Assembly (NCBI RefSeq): GCF_046054155.1 | Contig: NZ_JBEQCT010000002.1 | Coordinates: 255,323 to 279,322 of the forward strand | Source: Celerinatantimonas yamalensis | GTDB lineage: Bacteria; Pseudomonadota; Gammaproteobacteria; Enterobacterales; Celerinatantimonadaceae | Direction: 5' to 3' | DNA: 24,000 nt | In this document: positions 442 through 20,988 of the stretch, one piece after another | Layout: every line of letters starts with the position of its first letter | How positions within the stretch are numbered: the stretch's first letter is position 1 | Position numbers and translations under genes: made by a program | Notes under the pieces: generated by a model | Databases searched by the model: none | The model's input: the letters and a program-made list of their open reading frames with translations, nothing else | Told to the model about the DNA's origin: nothing

Positions 442-1731
442 ATGTCCCTAAAGAAGTTTAACGTAATCGCCATCTGGCAAAAATGTCCTAAATTACATCG
501 CCGCATACTGTTAATCTTGTTAGCTATACTTGCTATCATGGTATGTTGGTCACCGTCATCGAGTCTCTCTGGCAATGTGACGATACCTACACAGCAACAG
601 CGCCCCACTGAAAGTGATGACTTTTCCTCAGATAGTGCTGAAGTACCGAGCAATAATGAGATTCAGCCCCCCAGTAGCGAATATACAATCGTCACAGGCG
701 ATACTTTAAGTGAGATTTTCACTCGGTTGGGGCTTTCACTGCAACAGATGCAAAACATCATTGAGAATGACCAAACACAAGCATTAGATACGCTTAATCC
801 TGGCGATAAATTACGTTTTTGGCTCAATGTTAAAAATCAATTAACGCGTTTCCAAGTCTATTTTAATCCAGGTTACTTTGTTGATTTTAATCTCCTTGAA
901 GATGGTAGTTATGAGTCAAAGGTGGTTCGTTTAGAAGGGATATGGAAACAACGCGTTGTGCGCGGCACGATCCAAGGAAGCCTGTATCTATCGGCACGTA
1001 AATTAGGATTAACACCTGCCCAGATCGAACAAATCGGTCAGATGTTTAAAGATAAAATTAACTTTCGTCGAGAATTGCGCGCAGGTGACCCTTTCACCGT
1101 AGTGATTGAATATCAATACGTCAAAGAGCAACCGACCGGAGAAAACAACTTATTAGCAGTACAGATCATCAACCGTCATCGCAGTTACAATGCTTTCTTA
1201 TTTGATAACGGGAAATACTATGATGAAGATGGTCAAAGTTTAACACGGGCATTTTTGCGCTATCCAACCAAACACCATTTTCGGATTAGTTCGCCCTTTA
1301 ATTTGCACCGCCTCCATCCTGTAACTGGGCGACTTGCACCTCACTACGGCACCGATTTTGCCTGCCCGACTGGGACTCCAGTGATGGCCACAGGCGATGG
1401 TGTGGTGACTCGAGTGATCCATCACCCTTATGCCGGGCTGTACATTGATATTCGCCATGGCAGCACTTATATCACCCGCTATTTACATCTGAGTAAATCT
1501 TATGTGAAACGTGGTCAACCGGTCAAACGCGGGCAAGTTATTGCACTTTCAGGAGCAACAGGACGCGTTACCGGGCCACATTTACACTATGAGTTTCGAA
1601 TTAATAATCGACCGGTTAACCCGATGAGTGCAAAAATTCCAATGGCAGCGGCTGTATCCAAAAAAGATATGCCTCAGTTTAAACACAATGTGCAAAAACT
1701 ATTGGCGCTGATGAAAGCGCCGAATAAATAG
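442..1731 (+). CDS. mepM: LysM/M23 murein DD-endopeptidase (MepM/YebA, ShyB-like)
   Basis: 429-aa ORF with an N-terminal membrane anchor (ILLILLAILAIMVCW) and a LysM-like segment (YTIVTGDTLSEIFTRLGL). M23 motifs are present (HYGTDFACPTGTPV, GPHLHYEF). It is colinear with E. coli MepM as I recall it. The ATG lies 8 nt after the upstream stop. Confidence 0.85.
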   Translation: MSLKKFNVIAIWQKCPKLHRRILLILLAILAIMVCWSPSSSLSGNVTIPTQQQRPTESDDFSSDSAEVPSNNEIQPPSSEYTIVTGDTLSEIFTRLGLSLQQMQNIIENDQTQALDTLNPGDKLRFWLNVKNQLTRFQVYFNPGYFVDFNLLEDGSYESKVVRLEGIWKQRVVRGTIQGSLYLSARKLGLTPAQIEQIGQMFKDKINFRRELRAGDPFTVVIEYQYVKEQPTGENNLLAVQIINRHRSYNAFLFDNGKYYDEDGQSLTRAFLRYPTKHHFRISSPFNLHRLHPVTGRLAPHYGTDFACPTGTPVMATGDGVVTRVIHHPYAGLYIDIRHGSTYITRYLHLSKSYVKRGQPVKRGQVIALSGATGRVTGPHLHYEFRINNRPVNPMSAKIPMAAAVSKKDMPQFKHNVQKLLALMKAPNK

Positions 1732-1793: not shown

Positions 1794-2906
1794 TTAATGC
1801 ACCGGCGGCTCACTTAACATCTTTGATAGTGTCGCCATTAATGGTTTATAACGAAGTTGCCCCAGGTATTCATTTTGCTGATTAATCACCGCTAAATCGC
1901 GCTGGCGGGCAGCGCCTTGAGCAATTACGTCACTTAAAGGTTGATCCGCTTGAATGGTCGGTAAGTGGTCTATAAATTGTTTTAATGGCTTATCCATTTG
2001 CTGAATAGCTCGGTTGACTTGATACAACGATAATCCACCAACAAGCTGTTTACCATCCAGCAAATAGGCGTAGCTACTTTGAACTTTTTGCATCGCATCT
2101 AACGCCACATCGGCCTTCAGCCGATAATCCAATTGCAACACTGGTCGCTGCGCTAATTGTCCCGCACAAACCATTTGCAGCGAGTTTTCTGCACTCTCCG
2201 CAGATAACAAGCGCTCGCTTGACCATAAGCCAGCGCTTGACAGATCATCATAAAAGCCATTGGCGACACACTCACCTTGCACAAAAGCTAACACATAATC
2301 AGCATATTGACTCATCATGGCTATCTCTGTGGCATGCACAATCACAATCGAATGACGGCTCTGACATAGCGCCTTGAAGCGCAACGACCAGCGTTCTCGA
2401 AGTGAAGCGGGTAACTCACTAAATAGTGACTCAACCAGCAATAGCTCGGGCTTACACAAGAGTGCTCGCCACAACAACAATTGCACATGTTGCATGTGGT
2501 TAAGTTGTTCAGGGCAACAGTTGAGTAACTCCGTCAAATCATCTTCCGCTAATGCGGCATGGATCTGTTTGTAGGCTCTGAGCGGCGCCACGCCATGGAT
2601 CTGTAATGCCAACACTAAATTATCAACAACGCTGAGACACTCAATTAGAGGTAATCGCCAAGCCACCAGCATCACGCCTTTACGACGCCATTGGGTTAAT
2701 GCCTTCGCGGCATGTGGAATAGGCTCGCCGTTATAGCGCACTTTACCTTGGTTAGGTGAGTGCTCCCCGAACAACATAGCGATAAAGTCTTCACAACCTT
2801 CACCAATATCACCACATAAAGCGACAAACTGCCCTGTGCAAAGATTTAAATTGAGAGGTTTACTCACATCATTTAACGCCACTGCACTTAATTGTATTTG
2901 GCTCAT
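1794..2906 (-). CDS. ProV-like ABC ATPase homologue with tandem CBS-like C-terminus; catalytic motifs degenerate (predicted non-hydrolytic)
   Basis: 370-aa ORF colinear with E. coli ProV as I recall it. Motif positions, ProV versus this protein:
- Walker A: GLSGSGKST versus GDIGEGCED
- Q-loop: MVFQSF versus LVAWRL
- signature: LSGGM versus LNHMQ
- Walker B: LLMDEA versus LLVESL
- D-loop: SALD versus SELP
- H-loop: His retained (VHAT)
The C-terminal about 130 aa resembles a CBS pair (YLLDGKQLVGGLSLYQV; AVINQQNEYLGQLRYKPLM). A GAGGA Shine-Dalgarno sequence lies 7 nt upstream. The ATGA start/stop overlaps the upstream permease gene. Confidence 0.75.
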   Translation of the reverse strand: MSQIQLSAVALNDVSKPLNLNLCTGQFVALCGDIGEGCEDFIAMLFGEHSPNQGKVRYNGEPIPHAAKALTQWRRKGVMLVAWRLPLIECLSVVDNLVLALQIHGVAPLRAYKQIHAALAEDDLTELLNCCPEQLNHMQHVQLLLWRALLCKPELLLVESLFSELPASLRERWSLRFKALCQSRHSIVIVHATEIAMMSQYADYVLAFVQGECVANGFYDDLSSAGLWSSERLLSAESAENSLQMVCAGQLAQRPVLQLDYRLKADVALDAMQKVQSSYAYLLDGKQLVGGLSLYQVNRAIQQMDKPLKQFIDHLPTIQADQPLSDVIAQGAARQRDLAVINQQNEYLGQLRYKPLMATLSKMLSEPPVH

Positions 2907-3679
2907 GATGGCATCCTCGGCGCACTATCTAACGACCATAAAAAACCATGAAGTAGCAGTAAGGTCACTACAGCGCCAATCAATTGTTGCTGCTGATGCC
3001 CCAAGAGCGCTTGCAGTATATGCTGACCGAGTCCAGGTAGCCCAATAGTAGCCATTAAGACACTATAAAATAAGGTCACCTGAACGCTATTACAGCGCCA
3101 TCGAACGAGTCGCGCAGACAGCCATCGTGCAGCGACCCACTTCATTTGTTGATGAACATTAGCGCCTAACATGGCCGCTTGAGCCAATGGTTTATCTGGA
3201 ATTTGGGCAAAAAGCGATAATCGTGACAGTAAAAAGTGCGGGATCAATGCGCACCAAAGTACCACCACAGCTATTTCCCAACTGGGTTTAACCGCTACCA
3301 ATGCCAATAACCATACATAGATAGGCCACCAACGCACATCCACCCGACTTAGTTTGAGACATTTAGGAAATAAAATAAGATAACGCGCCATCAACCAAGA
3401 TATCCCCCAACTACTCAGCCACAACAGCAACCACCAGCCAAACTGCTCTATAAACAACGGCCAAACACCGAGTACATAAGCAACGCCCGGAAAACCAATG
3501 GCACCACTGAGAGACCACCACCGATGTCGCAGCAGATTCATGGCAACGGCAATAGCAATAATGCTCCAAAAAGGGATACTCCCTAGCCATTGCGACAGTT
3601 TATCAACCCCTGTTATGGGTGTATTAATAACCAGCCAAGGCGCTGAACTAAACCAAGTCCATAGTGACCATTGCGCCAT
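2903..3679 (-). CDS. ProW-like ABC permease homologue, extremely Trp-rich
   Basis: 258-aa polytopic membrane ORF. An EAA-loop-like segment (IPDKPLAQAAMLGANVHQQMKWV) aligns to ProW [23 protein letters not shown], and the following GLPGLGQHIL matches ProW GGLGQMVL. I count 23 Trp. An AGAGGGA Shine-Dalgarno sequence sits directly after the upstream TAA. Confidence 0.7.
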   Translation of the reverse strand: MAQWSLWTWFSSAPWLVINTPITGVDKLSQWLGSIPFWSIIAIAVAMNLLRHRWWSLSGAIGFPGVAYVLGVWPLFIEQFGWWLLLWLSSWGISWLMARYLILFPKCLKLSRVDVRWWPIYVWLLALVAVKPSWEIAVVVLWCALIPHFLLSRLSLFAQIPDKPLAQAAMLGANVHQQMKWVAARWLSARLVRWRCNSVQVTLFYSVLMATIGLPGLGQHILQALLGHQQQQLIGAVVTLLLLHGFLWSLDSAPRMPS

Positions 3680-3692
3680 GTTTGTCCCTCTT

Positions 3693-4229
3693 TTATCTCA
3701 AATGGTTGTTTATTTCGGTCACATTCACTAATGTCAGACGATGACCACTCCAACTAAAAAATCGTGCTAACTGCACTGTTTCAATCACCCACGTTTGACG
3801 ATTATCACCTGGATGACATTGCAGCGCCTTCGCACTTTGCCACAAGGCTTGATCAATCCATAGCTCAACCTGTCGATCACGGTCAAAAGCCAATGCCAAC
3901 GGAGAGACACACCCTGGCGTTAAATTCAAATACAGAGCCAAACGCCGCGATGAAGCAAGCCCCAACCGAGTTGTTTGTTGGGCCGTTGCTAAGGCTTTCA
4001 GATCAACTTGGCAAGACGCTGGGACAACCAACAAAAAATGTCGTTTACCCGCATTATCTTGTAAAAATAAATTTTTTACGCGAGTTCCTTGTCGAACTAA
4101 TCCCAATTCATCGGCACGCCGACAATCACCTAGGGGCGGATGATCATAGCTCACATAGCCAATATCCAAACGAGCTAACACATGCGCAATTGTTTGCCTT
4201 ACTTGATAAAGTCTATCACCTTGATTCAT
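3693..4229 (-). CDS. YbaK/ProX-type aminoacyl-tRNA deacylase domain protein (prolyl-tRNA synthetase-associated editing domain)
   Basis: 178-aa ORF. Its length and pattern (LDIGYVSYDHPP...KNLFLQDNAGKRHFLLVVPA...VDLKAL...LTPGCVSPLAL) are typical of free-standing YbaK/ProX editing domains. It is the first gene of the three-gene operon. No obvious Shine-Dalgarno sequence. Confidence 0.7.
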   Translation of the reverse strand: MNQGDRLYQVRQTIAHVLARLDIGYVSYDHPPLGDCRRADELGLVRQGTRVKNLFLQDNAGKRHFLLVVPASCQVDLKALATAQQTTRLGLASSRRLALYLNLTPGCVSPLALAFDRDRQVELWIDQALWQSAKALQCHPGDNRQTWVIETVQLARFFSWSGHRLTLVNVTEINNHLR

Positions 4230-4556
4230 AAGTTAAGAATAACACGCGCCGGCAATTTTGCAGTGCCTTTCACGACATCTTTTCGTATCGGTTAAGTCGC
4301 TGGTTTGAGGGACAAAGAAATCAATTCAGTCGTTTTAATTTTAAGCAAATAACTCAATTCACTCCTCGCTTGACTCGCGATGACATAGCTTTTGCGTTAG
4401 TCACTTGGAGATGTCAAACCGAGACCGATTAGGATATCGACCACTATTATCTGGTTGTCTTCCCCTATATGCCCGCAACTTTTATATTGGCGATTTATTA
4501 TCTAGCCCAGAGGTTATATAATCCGCGCTCTTTTCCCACCACTGAGCACGCTTGCT

Positions 4557-5744
4557 ATGAAACCCGCTCTCTATCTGCACCCTAAACGAGAAAAATCACT
4601 CTTTCGTCGTCATCCATGGATCTTCTCTCAAGCGATTGAGCGCATCGATGGCACACCATCTCGCGGTGAAACCGTTTCAATCTATTCTGCAGCAGGGCAA
4701 TGGCTCGCCTACGCGGGATACTCGCCCGATTCACAAATTCGCGCCCGAGTCTGGAGTTTTGATAAACGCACACCCATTGATGCTGACTTTTTCGCCCAAC
4801 AGCTCAAACAAGCCGCACTTAGCCGCGCGTTACTGGGACAATTTGCTCAGACGAATGCGTATCGACTCGTCGCGGGGGAAAATGATGGCCTGCCAGGGAT
4901 CACCATTGATCGCTATGCCGATGTTTTAGTGGTACAGCTTCTCAGTGCAGCCAGTGAGTATTGTCGCCAACTCCTTATTGATGCATTGATTGCTCAGTTT
5001 CCCGAATGTTGTATTTATGAGCGTTCTGATGTGGATGTGCGTAAAAAAGAAGGATTAGAGCCGACCAGCGGTTTACTGCACGGTGAATTGCCCACGCAAC
5101 CGATGATCATCGAAGAAAATGGTCTGAAATTATGGGTCAATATCGAAACCGGTCATAAAACAGGCTATTACTTAGACCAACGTAACAATCGCCGACTCAT
5201 AGGTCAACTCGCAGCCGGTAAGCGTGTTTTGAATTGCTTTAGCTATACAGGCGGTTTTGGTACTTATGCCTTGGCAGCTGGCGCCGACTCGGTCACTAAT
5301 TTAGATGTTTCTCGCGATGCCCTCCATATTGCTGGCGCCAATGTAGAACTGAATGCCTTAGATGCGAGTCGGATTACCCATGAGCGTCAAGATGTTTTTC
5401 AAGCGCTCCGTGACTATCAAGGGCAAAAGGAGTTTGATCTGATCGTGCTTGATCCGCCCAAGTTTGTTGACAGTAAAGCGCATTTAAAACGAGCTAGTCG
5501 GGGTTATCAGGACATCAATCGATTAGCGATGGGATTATTACCCGAGGGGGGGTTATTGGCCACATTTTCCTGTTCGGGACTGATGCCAAAAGAGCTCTTT
5601 CAGAAAATTGTTGCTGATGCAGCGCTTGATGCAGGTCGTAAGGTGGTCTTTTTACAGTCATTGCAGCAAGCTGAGGATCATCCTGTTGCAGGGCCTTATC
5701 CTGAAGGGTTCTACCTTAAAGGTTTTTTATGCCAAATCTTTTAA
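4557..5744 (+). CDS. rlmI: 23S rRNA m5C1962 methyltransferase RlmI
   Basis: 395-aa ORF, near-colinear with E. coli RlmI/YccW (REKSL.RRHPW.FS, SQIRARVW.FD, DGLPGITIDR, HKTGYYLDQR, VLNCFSYTGGF, DPPKF, FSCSG, YLKGF). A TATAAT at 4515-4520 is a plausible -10 box. Confidence 0.9.
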   Translation: MKPALYLHPKREKSLFRRHPWIFSQAIERIDGTPSRGETVSIYSAAGQWLAYAGYSPDSQIRARVWSFDKRTPIDADFFAQQLKQAALSRALLGQFAQTNAYRLVAGENDGLPGITIDRYADVLVVQLLSAASEYCRQLLIDALIAQFPECCIYERSDVDVRKKEGLEPTSGLLHGELPTQPMIIEENGLKLWVNIETGHKTGYYLDQRNNRRLIGQLAAGKRVLNCFSYTGGFGTYALAAGADSVTNLDVSRDALHIAGANVELNALDASRITHERQDVFQALRDYQGQKEFDLIVLDPPKFVDSKAHLKRASRGYQDINRLAMGLLPEGGLLATFSCSGLMPKELFQKIVADAALDAGRKVVFLQSLQQAEDHPVAGPYPEGFYLKGFLCQIF

Positions 5745-5782: not shown

Positions 5783-6559
5783 TTAATCGTCATTGGTTAC
5801 ATGAGACACAGTCGGTTTGGCCACGAAGTCCATCATCAATAACCCAGACATAAGCGCTTTCACAATCGCTTGCTGCCGATTGGACGATTGCGTCTTGCTG
5901 AGCGTATTGTTGAGATGATAGTTGACGGTGCTTTCAGCCAGTTTAAGGATCTGGGCGATCTCCCAGGTAGTTTTGCCTTGACTGGCCCAGCTCAAGCATT
6001 CTCGTTCACGGGGGCTGAGGCCATAATCCATTTGGGATTGACGCCAAAAGCGGTTTACCGCTTCATGCAGATAGGGCACAAATAACTGTGATTGCAACTG
6101 CAGATTAAGTTTTTCTGCCGGCTCAATAAGGCGTTTCATAGAGAGGCTTAGAATGCCAAATTCGCCTAATATGCCACGAACAGCTACAGAAATTCCATCG
6201 ATGATCCCAAATTTAGCGATCTCTTGAAAAAACTGCTCGCTTAAGCTATTGGTTGGCTGCTGCTGTTTGAGTTCATGCCAAAAAATCGGACGACAATAAT
6301 CCCGGCAAAGCCTAAAAATAGGATCATAAGAACAGTTGTATAGATAATTTTCTAGCCACTGTTTCGGATAATTACTATCCAAAAAAAGCTGCAATTGAGT
6401 CGTTTCGGCTGGTCTAAACAATCGAAAGAGATAAAAATCACATCCTAAATTCTGAGTAATTTGCTGACAAACAAGTGAAAACGCTTTAACTGTTGATACG
6501 TTGCGGACACGTTCTAACAATTCAACTTGAACTTGTAAATCGAGCATCAGCGTTTCCAT
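5783..6559 (-). CDS. LuxR-family transcriptional regulator with autoinducer-binding domain (LuxR solo; no LuxI in the window)
   Basis: 258-aa ORF. The N-terminal domain carries the AHL-pocket hallmark string NYPKQW..NY......YDP.........PIFW and ...IIDGIS. The C-terminal HTH reads LSPRERECLSWASQGKTTWEIAQIL...STVNYHLNN. Confidence 0.8.
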   Translation of the reverse strand: METLMLDLQVQVELLERVRNVSTVKAFSLVCQQITQNLGCDFYLFRLFRPAETTQLQLFLDSNYPKQWLENYLYNCSYDPIFRLCRDYCRPIFWHELKQQQPTNSLSEQFFQEIAKFGIIDGISVAVRGILGEFGILSLSMKRLIEPAEKLNLQLQSQLFVPYLHEAVNRFWRQSQMDYGLSPRERECLSWASQGKTTWEIAQILKLAESTVNYHLNNTLSKTQSSNRQQAIVKALMSGLLMMDFVAKPTVSHVTNDD

Positions 6560-6616: not shown

Positions 6617-7114
6617 TTAGCCGTCTTGCCAATCTTGAATATGCGTTAACGGCAGCTCAGTATGTTCAATCACCGTCCGTAAAATAAAACTAGAGCGAAC
6701 ACCCGTCACGCCAGTGATACGTGTCAACTTACCTAACAGAAAATGTTGGAAATGTTCCATATCAGGCACTGTGACTTTCAACTGATAATCAGAGTCATTG
6801 CCAGTCACCAACATACACTCCATCACCTCTTCATATTTGCCCACTTCCTCTTCGAAATGTTGAAATCGCTCTGGTGTATGAAGATCCATCGAAATATGAA
6901 TATACGCCGTCAAACTAAGATTTAATTTATTAGCATTGAGCAATGTGACATGACGACGAATAAATCCGGAGTCTTCTAACTGTTTCACGCGACGAGAACA
7001 AGGCGATGGGGATAAGCCAACCCGTTCTGCTAATTCCAAATTACTAATACGGCCATTTTGTTGCATCACCTCTAAAATTAACCGATCAGTCTTATCCAGC
7101 TTTATCATGACCAT
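6617..7114 (-). CDS. Lrp/AsnC-family transcriptional regulator
   Basis: HTH segment LDKTDRLILEVMQQNGRISNLELAERVGLSPSPCSRRVKQLEDSGFI plus a RAM/AsnC_trans_reg-type C-terminus. I prefer the start at 7114 (MVMIKLD) because AAGGA lies 4 nt upstream. The ORF-track start at 7174 would add 20 atypical residues. Confidence 0.8.
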   Translation of the reverse strand: MVMIKLDKTDRLILEVMQQNGRISNLELAERVGLSPSPCSRRVKQLEDSGFIRRHVTLLNANKLNLSLTAYIHISMDLHTPERFQHFEEEVGKYEEVMECMLVTGNDSDYQLKVTVPDMEHFQHFLLGKLTRITGVTGVRSSFILRTVIEHTELPLTHIQDWQDG

Positions 7115-7363
7115 TTTATCCTTACCATCAAGAAGCTCTTGCCTCATTTTTGCTCGCCACATACTAATGAGCAATCACTGTAAACACAAACGCAATTTAG
7201 GTAAAACCAGTTGAGTTATTGGGAATGTTATCTGTAATTAACACATCAACTGTACAAACCCTATAGATAAAATATAATTTCAACATTTCATCTATAATTA
7301 GCAATAAAACTTATTATAAAGCTAAAAATTAGCAAAAACCAGCGCTCCAACCCGTCATTTTGT

Positions 7364-18311: not shown

Positions 18312-19280
18312 ATGAAATGGATCAGTTCAACCACCGTGTCTCAAACCGATGAAAAACTCGGTATTGTCCATCCAACCTCAGAAAACAGTCGATTTTTAGC
18401 CGTATTGGAGGGATGTCGAAGTACGTACTGGGAGTACCATTTACACACCCAAAAATTGCATTACCTATACTCTATTTGGGAGCAAACTACATCACAGTTT
18501 ATTAGCTATCAAACGAGTGAAGATTTTCAGGCGTTACAAGCAAATATTCATCCCTCAGATCGCGCTTCTTTTTATGCTCAATTAAACCTCCATATAGAAA
18601 AAGTTAACCCAGTATTTGAATGTACTTTCCGCTATCTAACTGCAAAAAATCGCCGTTGGCGGTGGTTCCGATGCCGCGGTCACATTACACACTACCAAGA
18701 TAATGAACCGGCCGTAATAGCGGGTATCTTTCGTGATGTCACGCGTGAAAAATACCGCCAGCAGAAGCTTCGGCAAATGGCTAAACGCGACCCGCTCACA
18801 GGTTTACCCAATCGCGCAGCGCTGAAAGAGGACTTTGACCAGCATCGGCCAGATGAGCATCAATCGGTTTCAATGGCGATTTTTTATCTCGACTTAGATG
18901 GCTTTAAAGAGGTCAATGATAAAATCAACCATCGAGCCGGCGACGTACTATTATGCGACCTTGCCAATCAATTAAATTGCTTCACGCGGCTACATGAGAA
19001 AGTCTATCGCATTGGTGGCGATGAATTTGTACTATTTGTCCCTCGCTTCAGCAATATACAAGAGATCACCCATTTGGCTGAGCGAATTACTCATACTTTT
19101 GCCAACAATAAACTCACTATATCAGGCTATTCTATCCAAGTTGGGATCAGTATTGGAATAGCCACATATCGCACCTCAGACACCTTAGATAGCATACTCG
19201 AACGAGCCGATGCACGAATGTACGAGGTAAAAAACAATGGTAAAAATGGCTATAAATTAGGTCACTCACTCAATGAATGA
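18312..19280 (+). CDS. PAS-GGDEF diguanylate cyclase
   Basis: A PAS-like N-terminal half (...FRYLTAKNRRWRWFRCRGHITHYQDNEPAVIAGIFRDVT) is followed by DPLTGLPNR, FYLDLDGFKEVND and an intact RIGGDEF. The I-site position reads RLHE rather than RxxD. Confidence 0.85.
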   Translation: MKWISSTTVSQTDEKLGIVHPTSENSRFLAVLEGCRSTYWEYHLHTQKLHYLYSIWEQTTSQFISYQTSEDFQALQANIHPSDRASFYAQLNLHIEKVNPVFECTFRYLTAKNRRWRWFRCRGHITHYQDNEPAVIAGIFRDVTREKYRQQKLRQMAKRDPLTGLPNRAALKEDFDQHRPDEHQSVSMAIFYLDLDGFKEVNDKINHRAGDVLLCDLANQLNCFTRLHEKVYRIGGDEFVLFVPRFSNIQEITHLAERITHTFANNKLTISGYSIQVGISIGIATYRTSDTLDSILERADARMYEVKNNGKNGYKLGHSLNE

Positions 19281-20917
19281 TGGGTATGTTGATATAGATG
19301 AACATCTCGCTGTGGGAAGGGAATCGATAATCCGACTTCATCAAAGCGTAATTTCACGCTACGCGTTACATCCCAATAGAGCTCCCAATAAGCTTCGGTT
19401 CGAACCCAAGGACGAACAATAAAATCTACAGATGATTCCCCTAGACGCATCAGCCGAATCACAGGCTCTGGTTCGCGCAATACATCCGGATGCTCATCAA
19501 TAATCGAGCGCAGTACTTTTTCTGCGAGCAAAATATCATCGTCATAGCTGATTGAGAATTCCATATCAACACGCCGAACTCGCTCAGCGGTAATATTATT
19601 GATAGTACTTCCCCAAATTTTATTATTGGGCACCATAATTTTTTGATTATCAAAAGTTCGAATTGTCGTGTTAACCAAACTCATATAGCTGACTTTCCCC
19701 GAAACTCCCCCCGCATCAACATAATCGCCCACATCAAAGGGCCGATAGATCAAAATCATCATGCCTGACGCGAAATTAGAAAGCGTATCTTGCAATGCGA
19801 AACCGATGACAATACCAGCCACACCAAGACCTGCGAGAATTGGGGCTAAATCAACACCAATTTGAGAAAACGCAGCAAGAATACCGAGCAAAATAACGGA
19901 CTTACCAGTAGTTGCAATAAAAAAGTCTTGCACTAATGTCGACATCCGTGAGTGTTTAGATCGCACCATCTTGCTGACCAATTGTTTCATTACCCGTGAA
20001 ATACCATAGAACAGCACAATCATCAAAATAAAGATCAAGGCCTTGGGTAAAAATGATTTAATACTGACAACAAAAAACTGATCGCCGCTAAAAAAGAAGG
20101 TTCTTATAAATGAAAGAAATCCATCGCTGTTGATAACGAGATCGCTGAGTTCGCCCGATGCTGAAAATATCAGCTGATTATAGACCGTGACATCAATATC
20201 ATTGACTTTTAATACGGGCACCAACTGACTGATATTGTCACTGAGTGTTTTGCTCACACGCTGCTGAAGCGTCAATTCATCACTCATCTGTTGGTGCATC
20301 ACTTTGGTTAAGCTACCAATTTCATCCTTGATTTGATCTTGTTTTTTAATACTTGCATTTAAATAATTTGCTAAATCATTCACATAGCGTAGTAGATCAT
20401 TATGAAAACGTACGCGATACTCTTTTCTGGATCTAACATCACGCAGTCTCTCTATCAACTCACTTTGTTTGCTGTAAAGGCTGCTTTGATAATGCATCGC
20501 CGAAGAAACTGTCAACCAACTGAGCGGTTTATTAGCCAGTGAAGCTTGTTCATAACTGTGGAATAGATCGCGCAATCGCTGCGGAGCCTGCGTTTTTTGC
20601 AGCTCAATCACGGTTAACATTTTTTTGACAAGCGCATCATTAGCTGCAATTGAAAGCTGTGATTGAGAACGAGTATTTTTAAGCACCAGTGCATTTAACT
20701 CATCGACCCGGGAGCTTATTTGCTGCAGCAGCATACTACGACTCATATCTGATTCACTTTTGCGCCAAATTTGTCCCAGTGAATTGAGATCATCTTGCCC
20801 TTTTTGCAAGCTCTCTTTGAGTATCAACTGCTCGGATTGCACCTGCGCATAAACAGGGATGGTAAACATAGCCCATATCAATAGGCTTATCCAACCCTGT
20901 CGAATAACTCTGCGCAT
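19262..20917 (-). CDS. MscS-family mechanosensitive channel with a large N-terminal periplasmic coiled-coil region
   Basis: The MscS core reads GVAGIVIGFALQDTLSNFASGMMILIYRPFDVGDYV...GKV..MSLVNTTIRTFDNQKIMVPNNKI. I prefer the start at 20917, which gives the signal peptide MRRVIRQGWISLLIWAMFTIPVYA and has a tandem AGGAGTAGGAGT 5 nt upstream. The ORF-track start is 20962. Confidence 0.85.
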   Translation of the reverse strand: MRRVIRQGWISLLIWAMFTIPVYAQVQSEQLILKESLQKGQDDLNSLGQIWRKSESDMSRSMLLQQISSRVDELNALVLKNTRSQSQLSIAANDALVKKMLTVIELQKTQAPQRLRDLFHSYEQASLANKPLSWLTVSSAMHYQSSLYSKQSELIERLRDVRSRKEYRVRFHNDLLRYVNDLANYLNASIKKQDQIKDEIGSLTKVMHQQMSDELTLQQRVSKTLSDNISQLVPVLKVNDIDVTVYNQLIFSASGELSDLVINSDGFLSFIRTFFFSGDQFFVVSIKSFLPKALIFILMIVLFYGISRVMKQLVSKMVRSKHSRMSTLVQDFFIATTGKSVILLGILAAFSQIGVDLAPILAGLGVAGIVIGFALQDTLSNFASGMMILIYRPFDVGDYVDAGGVSGKVSYMSLVNTTIRTFDNQKIMVPNNKIWGSTINNITAERVRRVDMEFSISYDDDILLAEKVLRSIIDEHPDVLREPEPVIRLMRLGESSVDFIVRPWVRTEAYWELYWDVTRSVKLRFDEVGLSIPFPQRDVHLYQHTHHSLSE

Positions 20918-20988
20918 ATTCACTCCTACTCCTCTATTATATTGATCAATCACTGTTATCATTGCGAAGACTTAGCAAGGAGAAAAAC

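Follow-up and report, generated by a model that had tools for sequence, protein, structure and literature searches.

The window analysed here is a stretch of 24,000 nt of Celerinatantimonas yamalensis DNA, and at window positions 1794-4229 its minus strand carries a three-gene module that joins a tRNA-editing deacylase gene to a pair of genes derived from an ATP-binding cassette (ABC) importer. The listing of open reading frames (ORFs) gave three consecutive minus-strand ORFs, 4229-3693 (178 aa), 3679-2903 (258 aa) and 2906-1794 (370 aa), all at the positions given in a prediction made from the DNA letters beforehand (the original prediction), and the 370-aa product was 100% identical to an NCBI protein of C. 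yamalensis. The first gene (3693-4229) encodes a free-standing aminoacyl-tRNA deacylase of the ProXp-ala/PrdX type (INS/YbaK superfamily). The second (2903-3679) encodes a highly diverged, Trp-rich transmembrane (TM) subunit of the ProW/OpuAB type of type-I ABC importer, and the third (1794-2906) a ProV/OpuAA-type pseudo-ATPase, which has an ABC nucleotide-binding domain (NBD) fold and a tandem CBS module. The NCBI annotation of the two transporter-like proteins goes no further than "ATP-binding cassette domain-containing protein" and "hypothetical protein".

The genes are closely packed. The deacylase stop TAA is followed by a 13-nt spacer, AAGAGGGACAAAC (3680-3692, minus strand), which contains the Shine-Dalgarno sequence of the TM gene and runs directly into its ATG. 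The TM and ABC-like genes share an ATGA start/stop overlap (2903-2906, minus strand), which was found in all seven genomes that carry the module, and GAGGA lies 7 nt 5' of the ABC-like ATG. The three genes had been described as translationally coupled; this stood for the TM/ABC-like pair, where the overlap is strict, but not for the deacylase and TM genes, which are 13-19 nt apart in five genomes and 74 nt apart in two.

The ancestry of the 370-aa protein was clear from both sequence and structure. The Pfam ABC_tran model (PF00005) matched it with an E value of 1.8e-9 (38.7 bits against a cut-off of 25). The best NCBIfam model was proV TIGR01186, which covered residues 16-360 with 77 bits, far under its cut-off of 326.6, and the ProV model PRK10070 gave 55.5 bits against a cut-off of 444. 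When a six-member family alignment was compared with E. coli ProV by hhalign, aa 17-360 aligned to ProV 44-392 including both CBS repeats (probability 99.7, E = 6e-27), at an identity of about 20% to canonical ProV. The AlphaFold2 model of the protein had a predicted local distance difference test score (pLDDT) of 75.6, and in Foldseek its top PDB match was full-length OpuAA (7ahe_C, E = 4e-19, 395 columns), with hundreds of NBDs at E < 1e-15. Thus the proposed ProV/ProW ancestry was confirmed by hhalign, PDB profile search and Foldseek.

The residues that bind and hydrolyse ATP are gone. Motif columns were taken from three independent alignments, made with phmmer to the NBDs of ABCB1, with hhalign to E. 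coli ProV, and with MAFFT to E. coli ProV and ten canonical ProV-like proteins, and all three agreed with the replacements that had been read from the single sequence. The canonical Walker A GLSGSGKS has become GDIGEGCE (aa 32-39), and the whole remnant GDIGEGCED (aa 32-40; 2787-2813, minus strand, as for all features of this gene) has Cys at the Lys position and Glu at the Ser/Thr position. The Q-loop remnant VAWRLPL (2646-2666) has W83 in place of Gln, or Asp in two orthologues, and the signature LSGGQ/M is replaced by LNHMQ (aa 135-139; 2490-2504). At 2409-2444, the Walker B hhhhDE (canonical ILLMDE) is replaced by LLLVES (aa 155-160), and the D-loop SALD by SELP (aa 163-166). The H-loop region IVHAT (2328-2342) still has its His, H191. 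The earlier statement that only the H-loop His survives therefore holds for the window protein but not for the whole family, because this His is present in five of the seven orthologues and is Phe in the L002/L005 clade.

The same losses were found across the family. None of the seven orthologues has a GxxGxGK[ST] Walker A; they share the form GD[IM]G[EAS]G[CSAP]E, without Lys and without Ser/Thr. D33 and E39, two acidic residues flanking the P-loop, are invariant, while the former Lys position varies among C, S, A and P, which means that no substitute base is conserved there. The other replacements are equally family-wide: W/D in the Q-loop, L[NSD]xx[QE] in the signature, [VI][EDN][SAQ] at the end of Walker B and xxLP in the D-loop. 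The ten canonical ProV-like sequences in the same MAFFT alignment keep the Q-loop, signature, Walker B and D-loop motifs, and in the canonical relatives examined there we found none of the substitutions characteristic of the family. A canonical Walker A Lys, LSGGQ or catalytic Glu hidden at another site of the 370-aa protein was ruled out, as none was found in any of the three alignments.

All family members also lack an insert of about 35 residues (about 35 columns of gaps in the MAFFT alignment) that ProV/OpuAA proteins typically have between the first two beta-strands. This insert is present in the ten canonical sequences and in OpuAA, and it holds the aromatic residue of the A-loop. In OpuAA the residues KRIK (16-19) lie within the N-terminal insert that is deleted from the Celerinatantimonas family, and the cationic KRIK helix-turn-helix (HTH) of OpuA is its ionic-strength sensor (Sikkema et al., PMC7673798). 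Cryptic ATP binding is made less likely by the free variation at the Lys position, by the two fixed acidic P-loop residues and by the missing A-loop, so the protein is probably unable to bind ATP. Each ATP site of an ABC protein is formed by Walker A and B of one NBD together with the signature of the other. Because both NBDs must contribute, a subunit without Walker A, Walker B or a signature motif would complete no site, whether its partner is another copy of itself or a live subunit.

The most conserved parts of the 370-aa protein are the cores of its tandem CBS module (1845-2078), aa 277-303 (SSYAYLLDGKQLVGGLSLYQVNRAIQQ) and aa 334-354 (RQRDLAVINQQNEYLGQLRYK), which align to CBS1 and CBS2 of ProV. 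Windows of 15 aa reached identities of at least 0.8 at aa 284-305, and the block at 331-340 reached 0.82. Other conservation peaks were a beta-hairpin at aa 50-65 (SPxQGKVRYNGEPIP) and the region after the signature (LLWRA). The CBS-like pair of the original prediction was thus supported by the full-length ProV profile alignment and by the OpuA fold match, but not by the Pfam CBS model, which did not match the 370-aa protein. Taken together, the protein is a ProV/OpuAA descendant by sequence and fold, and it falls outside ProV/OpuAA function in its ATP motifs, the curated model cut-offs, the HTH sensor and the binding protein.

The 258-aa TM protein is more diverged. Searches with the single sequence against Pfam, NCBIfam and PDB gave no match, and Pfam BPD_transp_1, silent on the window protein, matched the L005 orthologue weakly. 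The family profile, on the other hand, aligned aa 30-252 to residues 43-271 of the OpuA transmembrane domain (TMD; 7ahc_A, E = 1.2e-7), and hhalign of the family against E. coli ProW gave E = 3.4e-5. The AlphaFold2 model had a pLDDT of 80.3, and OpuA TMDs were its only significant Foldseek matches, with a TM-score of 0.65. So the permease identity stood at the level of family profile and structure model, though not at that of single-sequence searches. The two most conserved stretches are a cytoplasmic coupling loop of the EAA type and an IGxPGxG motif. The loop, LAQAAMLGANVHQQMKWVAARWL (3119-3187, minus strand), aligns to ProW and to OpuA EAADSFGSTARQ; the family form is QAxxLGAN against EAA-x3-G, with the Glu replaced by an invariant Gln167. 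The motif IGLPGLGQ (3023-3046, minus strand) is common to OpuA (IGAPGLG) and ProW. In the conservation profile the cytoplasmic coupling loop is kept while the TM helices and the periplasmic gate drift: the OpuA residues proposed as its betaine gate, F142, F166, M227 and M233, map to variable positions (Y/I/F, I/C, Y/S and T/I/L/F). The TM protein is the fastest evolving of the three, with 30-46% identity between clades. Its Trp content is 8.9% in C. yamalensis and 5.3-6.8% in the orthologues, and Trp occupies seven of the 37 invariant positions (W7, W73, W87, W118, W134, W181 and W194), of which only W73 seems to be shared with ProW/OpuA.

Six further loci carry the module, in Celerinatantimonas sp. 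MCCC 1A17872, sp. YJH-8, C. diazotrophica and three metagenome lineages. All seven genomes have the order deacylase-TM-ABC-like, the TM/ABC start/stop overlap, uninterrupted frames and the same degenerate motifs. The flanks vary: upstream we found gltBD in some genomes and rlmI in others, and downstream a gene for an M23 peptidase or an AsnC-type regulator. Since the flanks differ between genomes, the module must have stayed together through rearrangement on both sides. This answered the question of whether the substitutions and the three-gene linkage are conserved, and no related genome was found with canonical motifs and a binding protein. Some residues are newly fixed in the family, namely D33, E39, the D-loop Pro and the CBS cores.

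Synonymous sites between the genomes were saturated, with a proportion of synonymous differences (pS) of about 0.75-0.85. We compared nonsynonymous with synonymous proportions (pN/pS) in the closest clade. The pseudo-ATPase gave 0.077-0.088, which is indistinguishable from the 0.075-0.095 of the M23 peptidase used as control; the TM protein gave 0.18-0.22 and the deacylase 0.16-0.23. Both halves of the pseudo-ATPase are constrained, with a mean pN of 0.32 in the NBD and 0.27 in the CBS module. A pseudogene or strain-specific wreck was ruled out by seven intact orthologues with pN/pS of 0.08-0.22, and the earlier view that this is not simple decay was borne out by purifying selection and by the lack of frameshifts or stops in the six other genomes. 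In the C. diazotrophica clade (L001, L004, L008), the pseudo-ATPase gene had a pS of 0.65-0.80, and its deacylase, TM and M23 neighbours 0.43-0.67. Within the module it nevertheless encodes the best-conserved protein there (88-90% identity), and the high pS may reflect recombination, codon usage or noise.

The family is isolated. Word-indexed searches found no homologues of the TM and ABC-like proteins outside Celerinatantimonas. In an exhaustive hmmsearch of 1.84 billion representative proteins, the pseudo-ATPase family's own cluster scored 656 bits; next came tandem-NBD proteins with no more than 128 bits, and full-length ProV-like proteins scored about 100-113 bits, with no intermediates between the family and canonical ProV-like proteins. 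A wider family, or intermediates with live motifs, was thereby ruled out. Thus the pseudo-ABC importer is restricted to one genus and is kept by purifying selection, not decaying.

The deacylase, by its conserved residues, looks like a working enzyme. Pfam tRNA_edit matched it at 8.2e-20 (71.6 bits against a cut-off of 25.5), and its best PDB relatives were Atu3699 (1vki) and ProXp-ala of Caulobacter crescentus (Cc; 5vxb), at about 30% identity. In the Cc enzyme the near-universal K45 positions A76, and R80 reads G72 of tRNAPro (PMC10164551). The equivalent residues K52 and R88 are invariant in six orthologues, and the equivalent of Cc K50 is Gln57. Because K52 and R88 match K45 and R80, the deacylase looks competent and tRNA(Pro)-directed. 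Orthologues at about 50% identity were found in three Pseudoalteromonas species and in Ferrimonas gelatinilytica, and none of these four has a ProVW-like partner beside it. An ancestral deacylase plus ProVW operon was therefore ruled out for these two genera, and the W-V pair joined the deacylase within the Celerinatantimonas lineage. In Pseudoalteromonas (L010 3992-6492; L011 3969-6480; L013 3782-6453), the deacylase gene lies downstream of proA (glutamate-5-semialdehyde dehydrogenase, 576 bits) and a small lipoprotein-like ORF, and its 3' end overlaps a convergent MFS transporter gene; the proA neighbourhood is a second, independent proline-related context of this enzyme. In Ferrimonas (L012 5929-7395), a Ca2+/Na+ antiporter gene precedes the deacylase, and a same-strand EamA/DMT carboxylate/amino-acid/amine transporter gene follows it after 22 nt, which may hint at a recurring pairing of deacylase and transporter.

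Expression signals came mainly from aligning the upstream regions of the species. A 14-nt block, CGTGTTATTCTTAA (4233-4246, minus strand), is identical in five species (the window, L001, L003, L004 and L008) despite the saturated synonymous sites, and it ends 3-4 nt before the deacylase ATG. It can be read as an extended -10 element (TGtTATTCT), ending 6-7 nt before the ATG. A weak -35-like hexamer, CTGCAA (4258-4263, minus strand), lies 16 nt upstream of it, and CTGCA(A/G) is kept in five of the seven species; together they may form the promoter. In the L002/L005 clade the upstream sequence differs (TAAGAT aatgtc ATG), with the same geometry. Read this way, the block would probably give a leaderless or near-leaderless operon mRNA, which fits the absence of any Shine-Dalgarno sequence before the deacylase ATG. 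A sigma-70 consensus scan returned no minus-strand promoter, and the promoter-like block emerged from the cross-species alignment. A riboswitch, T-box or leader upstream was ruled out by Rfam scans, with no match at gathering score across the window and none at E <= 1 in 4150-4650, which includes the 327-nt upstream spacer. A terminator-like GC hairpin with a T-run (1704-1721, minus strand) was found by consensus scan 73 nt past the last stop, inside the 3' end of the convergent M23 gene, in a scan whose number of such sites was near chance.

In the window the module is bordered by genes for an M23 DD-endopeptidase (ShyA/MepM-like) and RlmI. As had been noted for this stretch, no substrate-binding-protein gene is adjacent; a gene of the ProX/OpuAC type stands beside the module at none of the seven loci, and the 258-aa TM protein has no fused substrate-binding domain. 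No PADLOC defence-system model matched any of the three proteins, so a known anti-phage defence system was ruled out. Just past rlmI lie genes for a LuxR-type regulator with an autoinducer-binding domain (5783-6559, minus strand) and an Lrp/AsnC regulator (6617-7174, minus strand). In the YJH-8/L005 clade an AsnC-type gene stands directly downstream of the module in convergent orientation (L002 7239-7727; L005 6872-7360). In the L005 metagenome contig (2987-4182), the rlmI homologue was called in two pieces of 71 aa and 325 aa, possibly by frameshift or assembly error. Elsewhere in the window, genes for an MscS-family mechanosensitive channel (566 aa, 19262-20962, minus strand) and a PAS-GGDEF diguanylate cyclase (18312-19280, plus strand) are convergent and overlap slightly at their ends.

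What the pair does can be proposed from these data. With moderate confidence we favour a membrane-anchored, ATP-independent sensor or regulator, including near variants of this idea. Genes 2 and 3 descend from a ProW/ProV (OpuAB/OpuAA) importer of compatible solutes that is now without a binding protein, without the osmosensing HTH insert and without any motif for ATP binding and hydrolysis. The products would still form a stable TMD2:pseudo-NBD2 complex, held by the retained EAA-loop docking site and the tandem CBS module, and this complex would act without ATP as a sensing or regulatory device, through the CBS module and the conserved pseudo-NBD surfaces, as a receptor derived from a transporter would, and not as a pump. 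A role in cytoplasmic interaction is favoured because conservation peaks in CBS1, CBS2, the beta-hairpin at aa 50-65 and the EAA loop, while the betaine-gate residues vary and the TM protein evolves fastest. The proline/betaine ancestry and shared expression with an enzyme that edits tRNA(Pro) suggest a part in the homeostasis of proline or a proline analogue, and this is the weakest step of the argument. A more specific version, an ATP-independent sensor or gated facilitator functionally coupled to tRNA(Pro) proofreading, which would, for example, sense or conduct proline or a toxic proline/alanine analogue and so coordinate editing with amino-acid homeostasis at the membrane, is put forward only tentatively.

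Several observations weigh against the sensor/regulator proposal. The argument from the conservation pattern is soft, because TMDs outpace NBDs in real importers too. The CBS module, on which the sensing role would depend, is not recognized by Pfam, as given above. Docking of the TM protein on the pseudo-NBD was deduced from conservation alone. In MalFGK2 the Glu of the EAA loop is paired with an NBD Arg that lies after Walker A; in the Celerinatantimonas family this Glu is invariantly Gln, and aa 43 of the pseudo-ATPase (window about 2776-2778) is A/K/K/D/E/E, so both partners of such a salt bridge appear to have been lost together. Finally, the deacylase is linked to a ProVW-like pair in one genus only, and the linkage could be inherited synteny.

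The main rival to the sensor/regulator reading is an ATP-independent facilitator or CBS-gated channel, in which a ProW-like dimer would let a small solute follow its gradient, be it proline, an osmolyte or an analogue that the deacylase releases, and the pseudo-NBD/CBS part would only gate it. The TMD fold is intact and under purifying selection (pN/pS about 0.2), the coupling loop is conserved, and the seven invariant Trp of the TM protein could line a cation-pi path; the Ferrimonas deacylase followed by an EamA/DMT transporter also hints at a deacylase-plus-transporter theme. However, the betaine-entry gate of OpuA is not conserved, the TM protein shows less conservation than the other two, a binding protein is missing, and the TMDs of type-I importers without a closed NBD dimer are inward-facing and shut to the outside. 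A D-loop mutant of TAP does turn an ABC pump into a facilitator, but that facilitator is still gated by nucleotide (PMC7756269). On balance we consider a facilitator unlikely, yet the strongest of the competing explanations. A good deal less probable is a dominant-negative or regulatory partner, in which the dead ProV- and ProW-like subunits would mix with a live ProVW encoded elsewhere and throttle its transport. The CBS module, by which NBD-NBD crossover takes place in OpuA, has been kept with high conservation, and ABC heterodimers in which one half is dead are common (PMC7756269). But the pair has its own translationally coupled TMD in seven of seven genomes, its identity to canonical ProV is about 20%, and the dead subunit, without Walker A and signature, would disable both composite sites in a mixed dimer.

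A primary transporter that still binds and hydrolyses ATP through non-canonical residues is very improbable. The C. yamalensis protein does keep the P-loop glycines G32, G35 and G37 as well as H191, and an NBD fold is predicted with moderate confidence; against this, none of the seven orthologues has a Walker A Lys/Ser, a Q-loop Gln, a signature motif, a Walker B Asp-Glu, a D-loop Asp or an A-loop. The residue at the former Lys position is free to vary (C/S/A/P), the P-loop has two fixed acidic residues, and two orthologues are without the His, whereas in known degenerate ABC sites Walker A is present and ATP binding persists (PMC7756269). We give the least weight of all to a functionless relic in slow decay, for which the deacylase linkage would be inherited gene order. 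It would suit a family that is confined to one genus, that outpaces the neighbouring M23 peptidase between distant clades, and whose deacylase orthologues elsewhere stand alone. The frames, however, are intact in seven genomes at saturated dS, with pN/pS of 0.08-0.22, far from 1; derived motifs (GDxGxGxE, the D-loop LP, the CBS cores) and the start/stop overlap are conserved, and the module is intact while both flanks are rearranged. Decay is thus largely refuted by the selection analysis.

Among known systems, the pair is closest to the osmoregulated glycine betaine/proline importers ProU (ProVWX) of E. coli and OpuA of Lactococcus lactis (7ahc/7ahd/7ahe). The NBD and tandem CBS module are collinear with theirs over the full length, and the TM subunit matches the ProW/OpuA TMD in profile and predicted fold and keeps the EAA-type loop, though with Gln for its Glu, and IGxPGxG. 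Unlike ProU and OpuA, the Celerinatantimonas pair has no ATP motifs, no HTH/KRIK insert, no binding-protein gene or domain and no conserved betaine gate; its gene order is W then V, its identity is about 20%, and its proV match is 77 bits against 326.6. Natural loss of NBD catalytic residues is also seen in degenerate-site ABC proteins, such as CFTR, SUR, TM287/288, TmrAB, ABCC1 and Pdr5, where function is kept: only one of two composite sites is degenerate, that site has its Walker A in place and binds ATP tightly, and the cycle is driven by the other (PMC7756269). The presumed homodimer of Celerinatantimonas differs in having lost Walker A and Walker B as well as the signature, which would leave no complete site.

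Transporter-derived sensors offer an analogy only. Transceptors such as yeast Ssy1 and Snf3/Rgt2 and E. coli UhpC keep a transporter scaffold for sensing, and the C-terminal domains of some ABC NBDs are regulatory, as in MalK-MalT and in trans-inhibition of MetN/ModC, so that a cytoplasmic domain serves as ligand sensor. None of these is known to be an ABC importer devoid of any ATPase capacity. SbmA/BacA is an ABC-type TMD that works without an NBD on the proton gradient, and it resembles the Celerinatantimonas pair in keeping an ABC membrane domain for an ATP-independent function; it has an exporter-type fold, whereas here the fold is that of a type-I importer and the NBD is kept as a CBS-bearing pseudo-enzyme. 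The deacylase is like ProXp-ala (5vxb, 1vki) in its tRNA_edit domain and invariant K45/R80 equivalents, but it has Gln at the K50 equivalent and sits in an operon with a membrane pseudo-transporter. As a further difference, the Celerinatantimonas gene is found in a gammaproteobacterium, and prolyl-tRNA synthetase (ProRS) of this group normally has its own INS editing domain. Our literature searches found no described fully dead ABC ATPase or importer, and no description of this Celerinatantimonas locus.

The pair would be an uncommon natural example of an ABC importer that has become something else than a pump, of interest to specialists in ABC transporters and pseudo-enzymes; it belongs to one small marine genus and is known here from sequence and structure models. 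If the version with functional coupling to tRNA(Pro) proofreading is true, the pair would give the first example in nature of a fully "dead" ABC importer that still has a function, and a trans-editing factor would for the first time have a membrane partner. ATP-driven cycling is the defining property of ABC transporters, and a homodimer-type importer with both sites erased, whose pseudo-ATPase is conserved as tightly as a housekeeping enzyme (the M23 peptidase control), would show that the TMD/NBD/CBS assembly can have an ATP-independent function on which selection acts. The pair would also be a natural system for studying the roles of the CBS module and the NBD-TMD interface on their own. For Celerinatantimonas itself, the constant presence of a gene for tRNA(Pro) trans-editing in the operon suggests that quality control of translation is connected with transport or sensing at the membrane.

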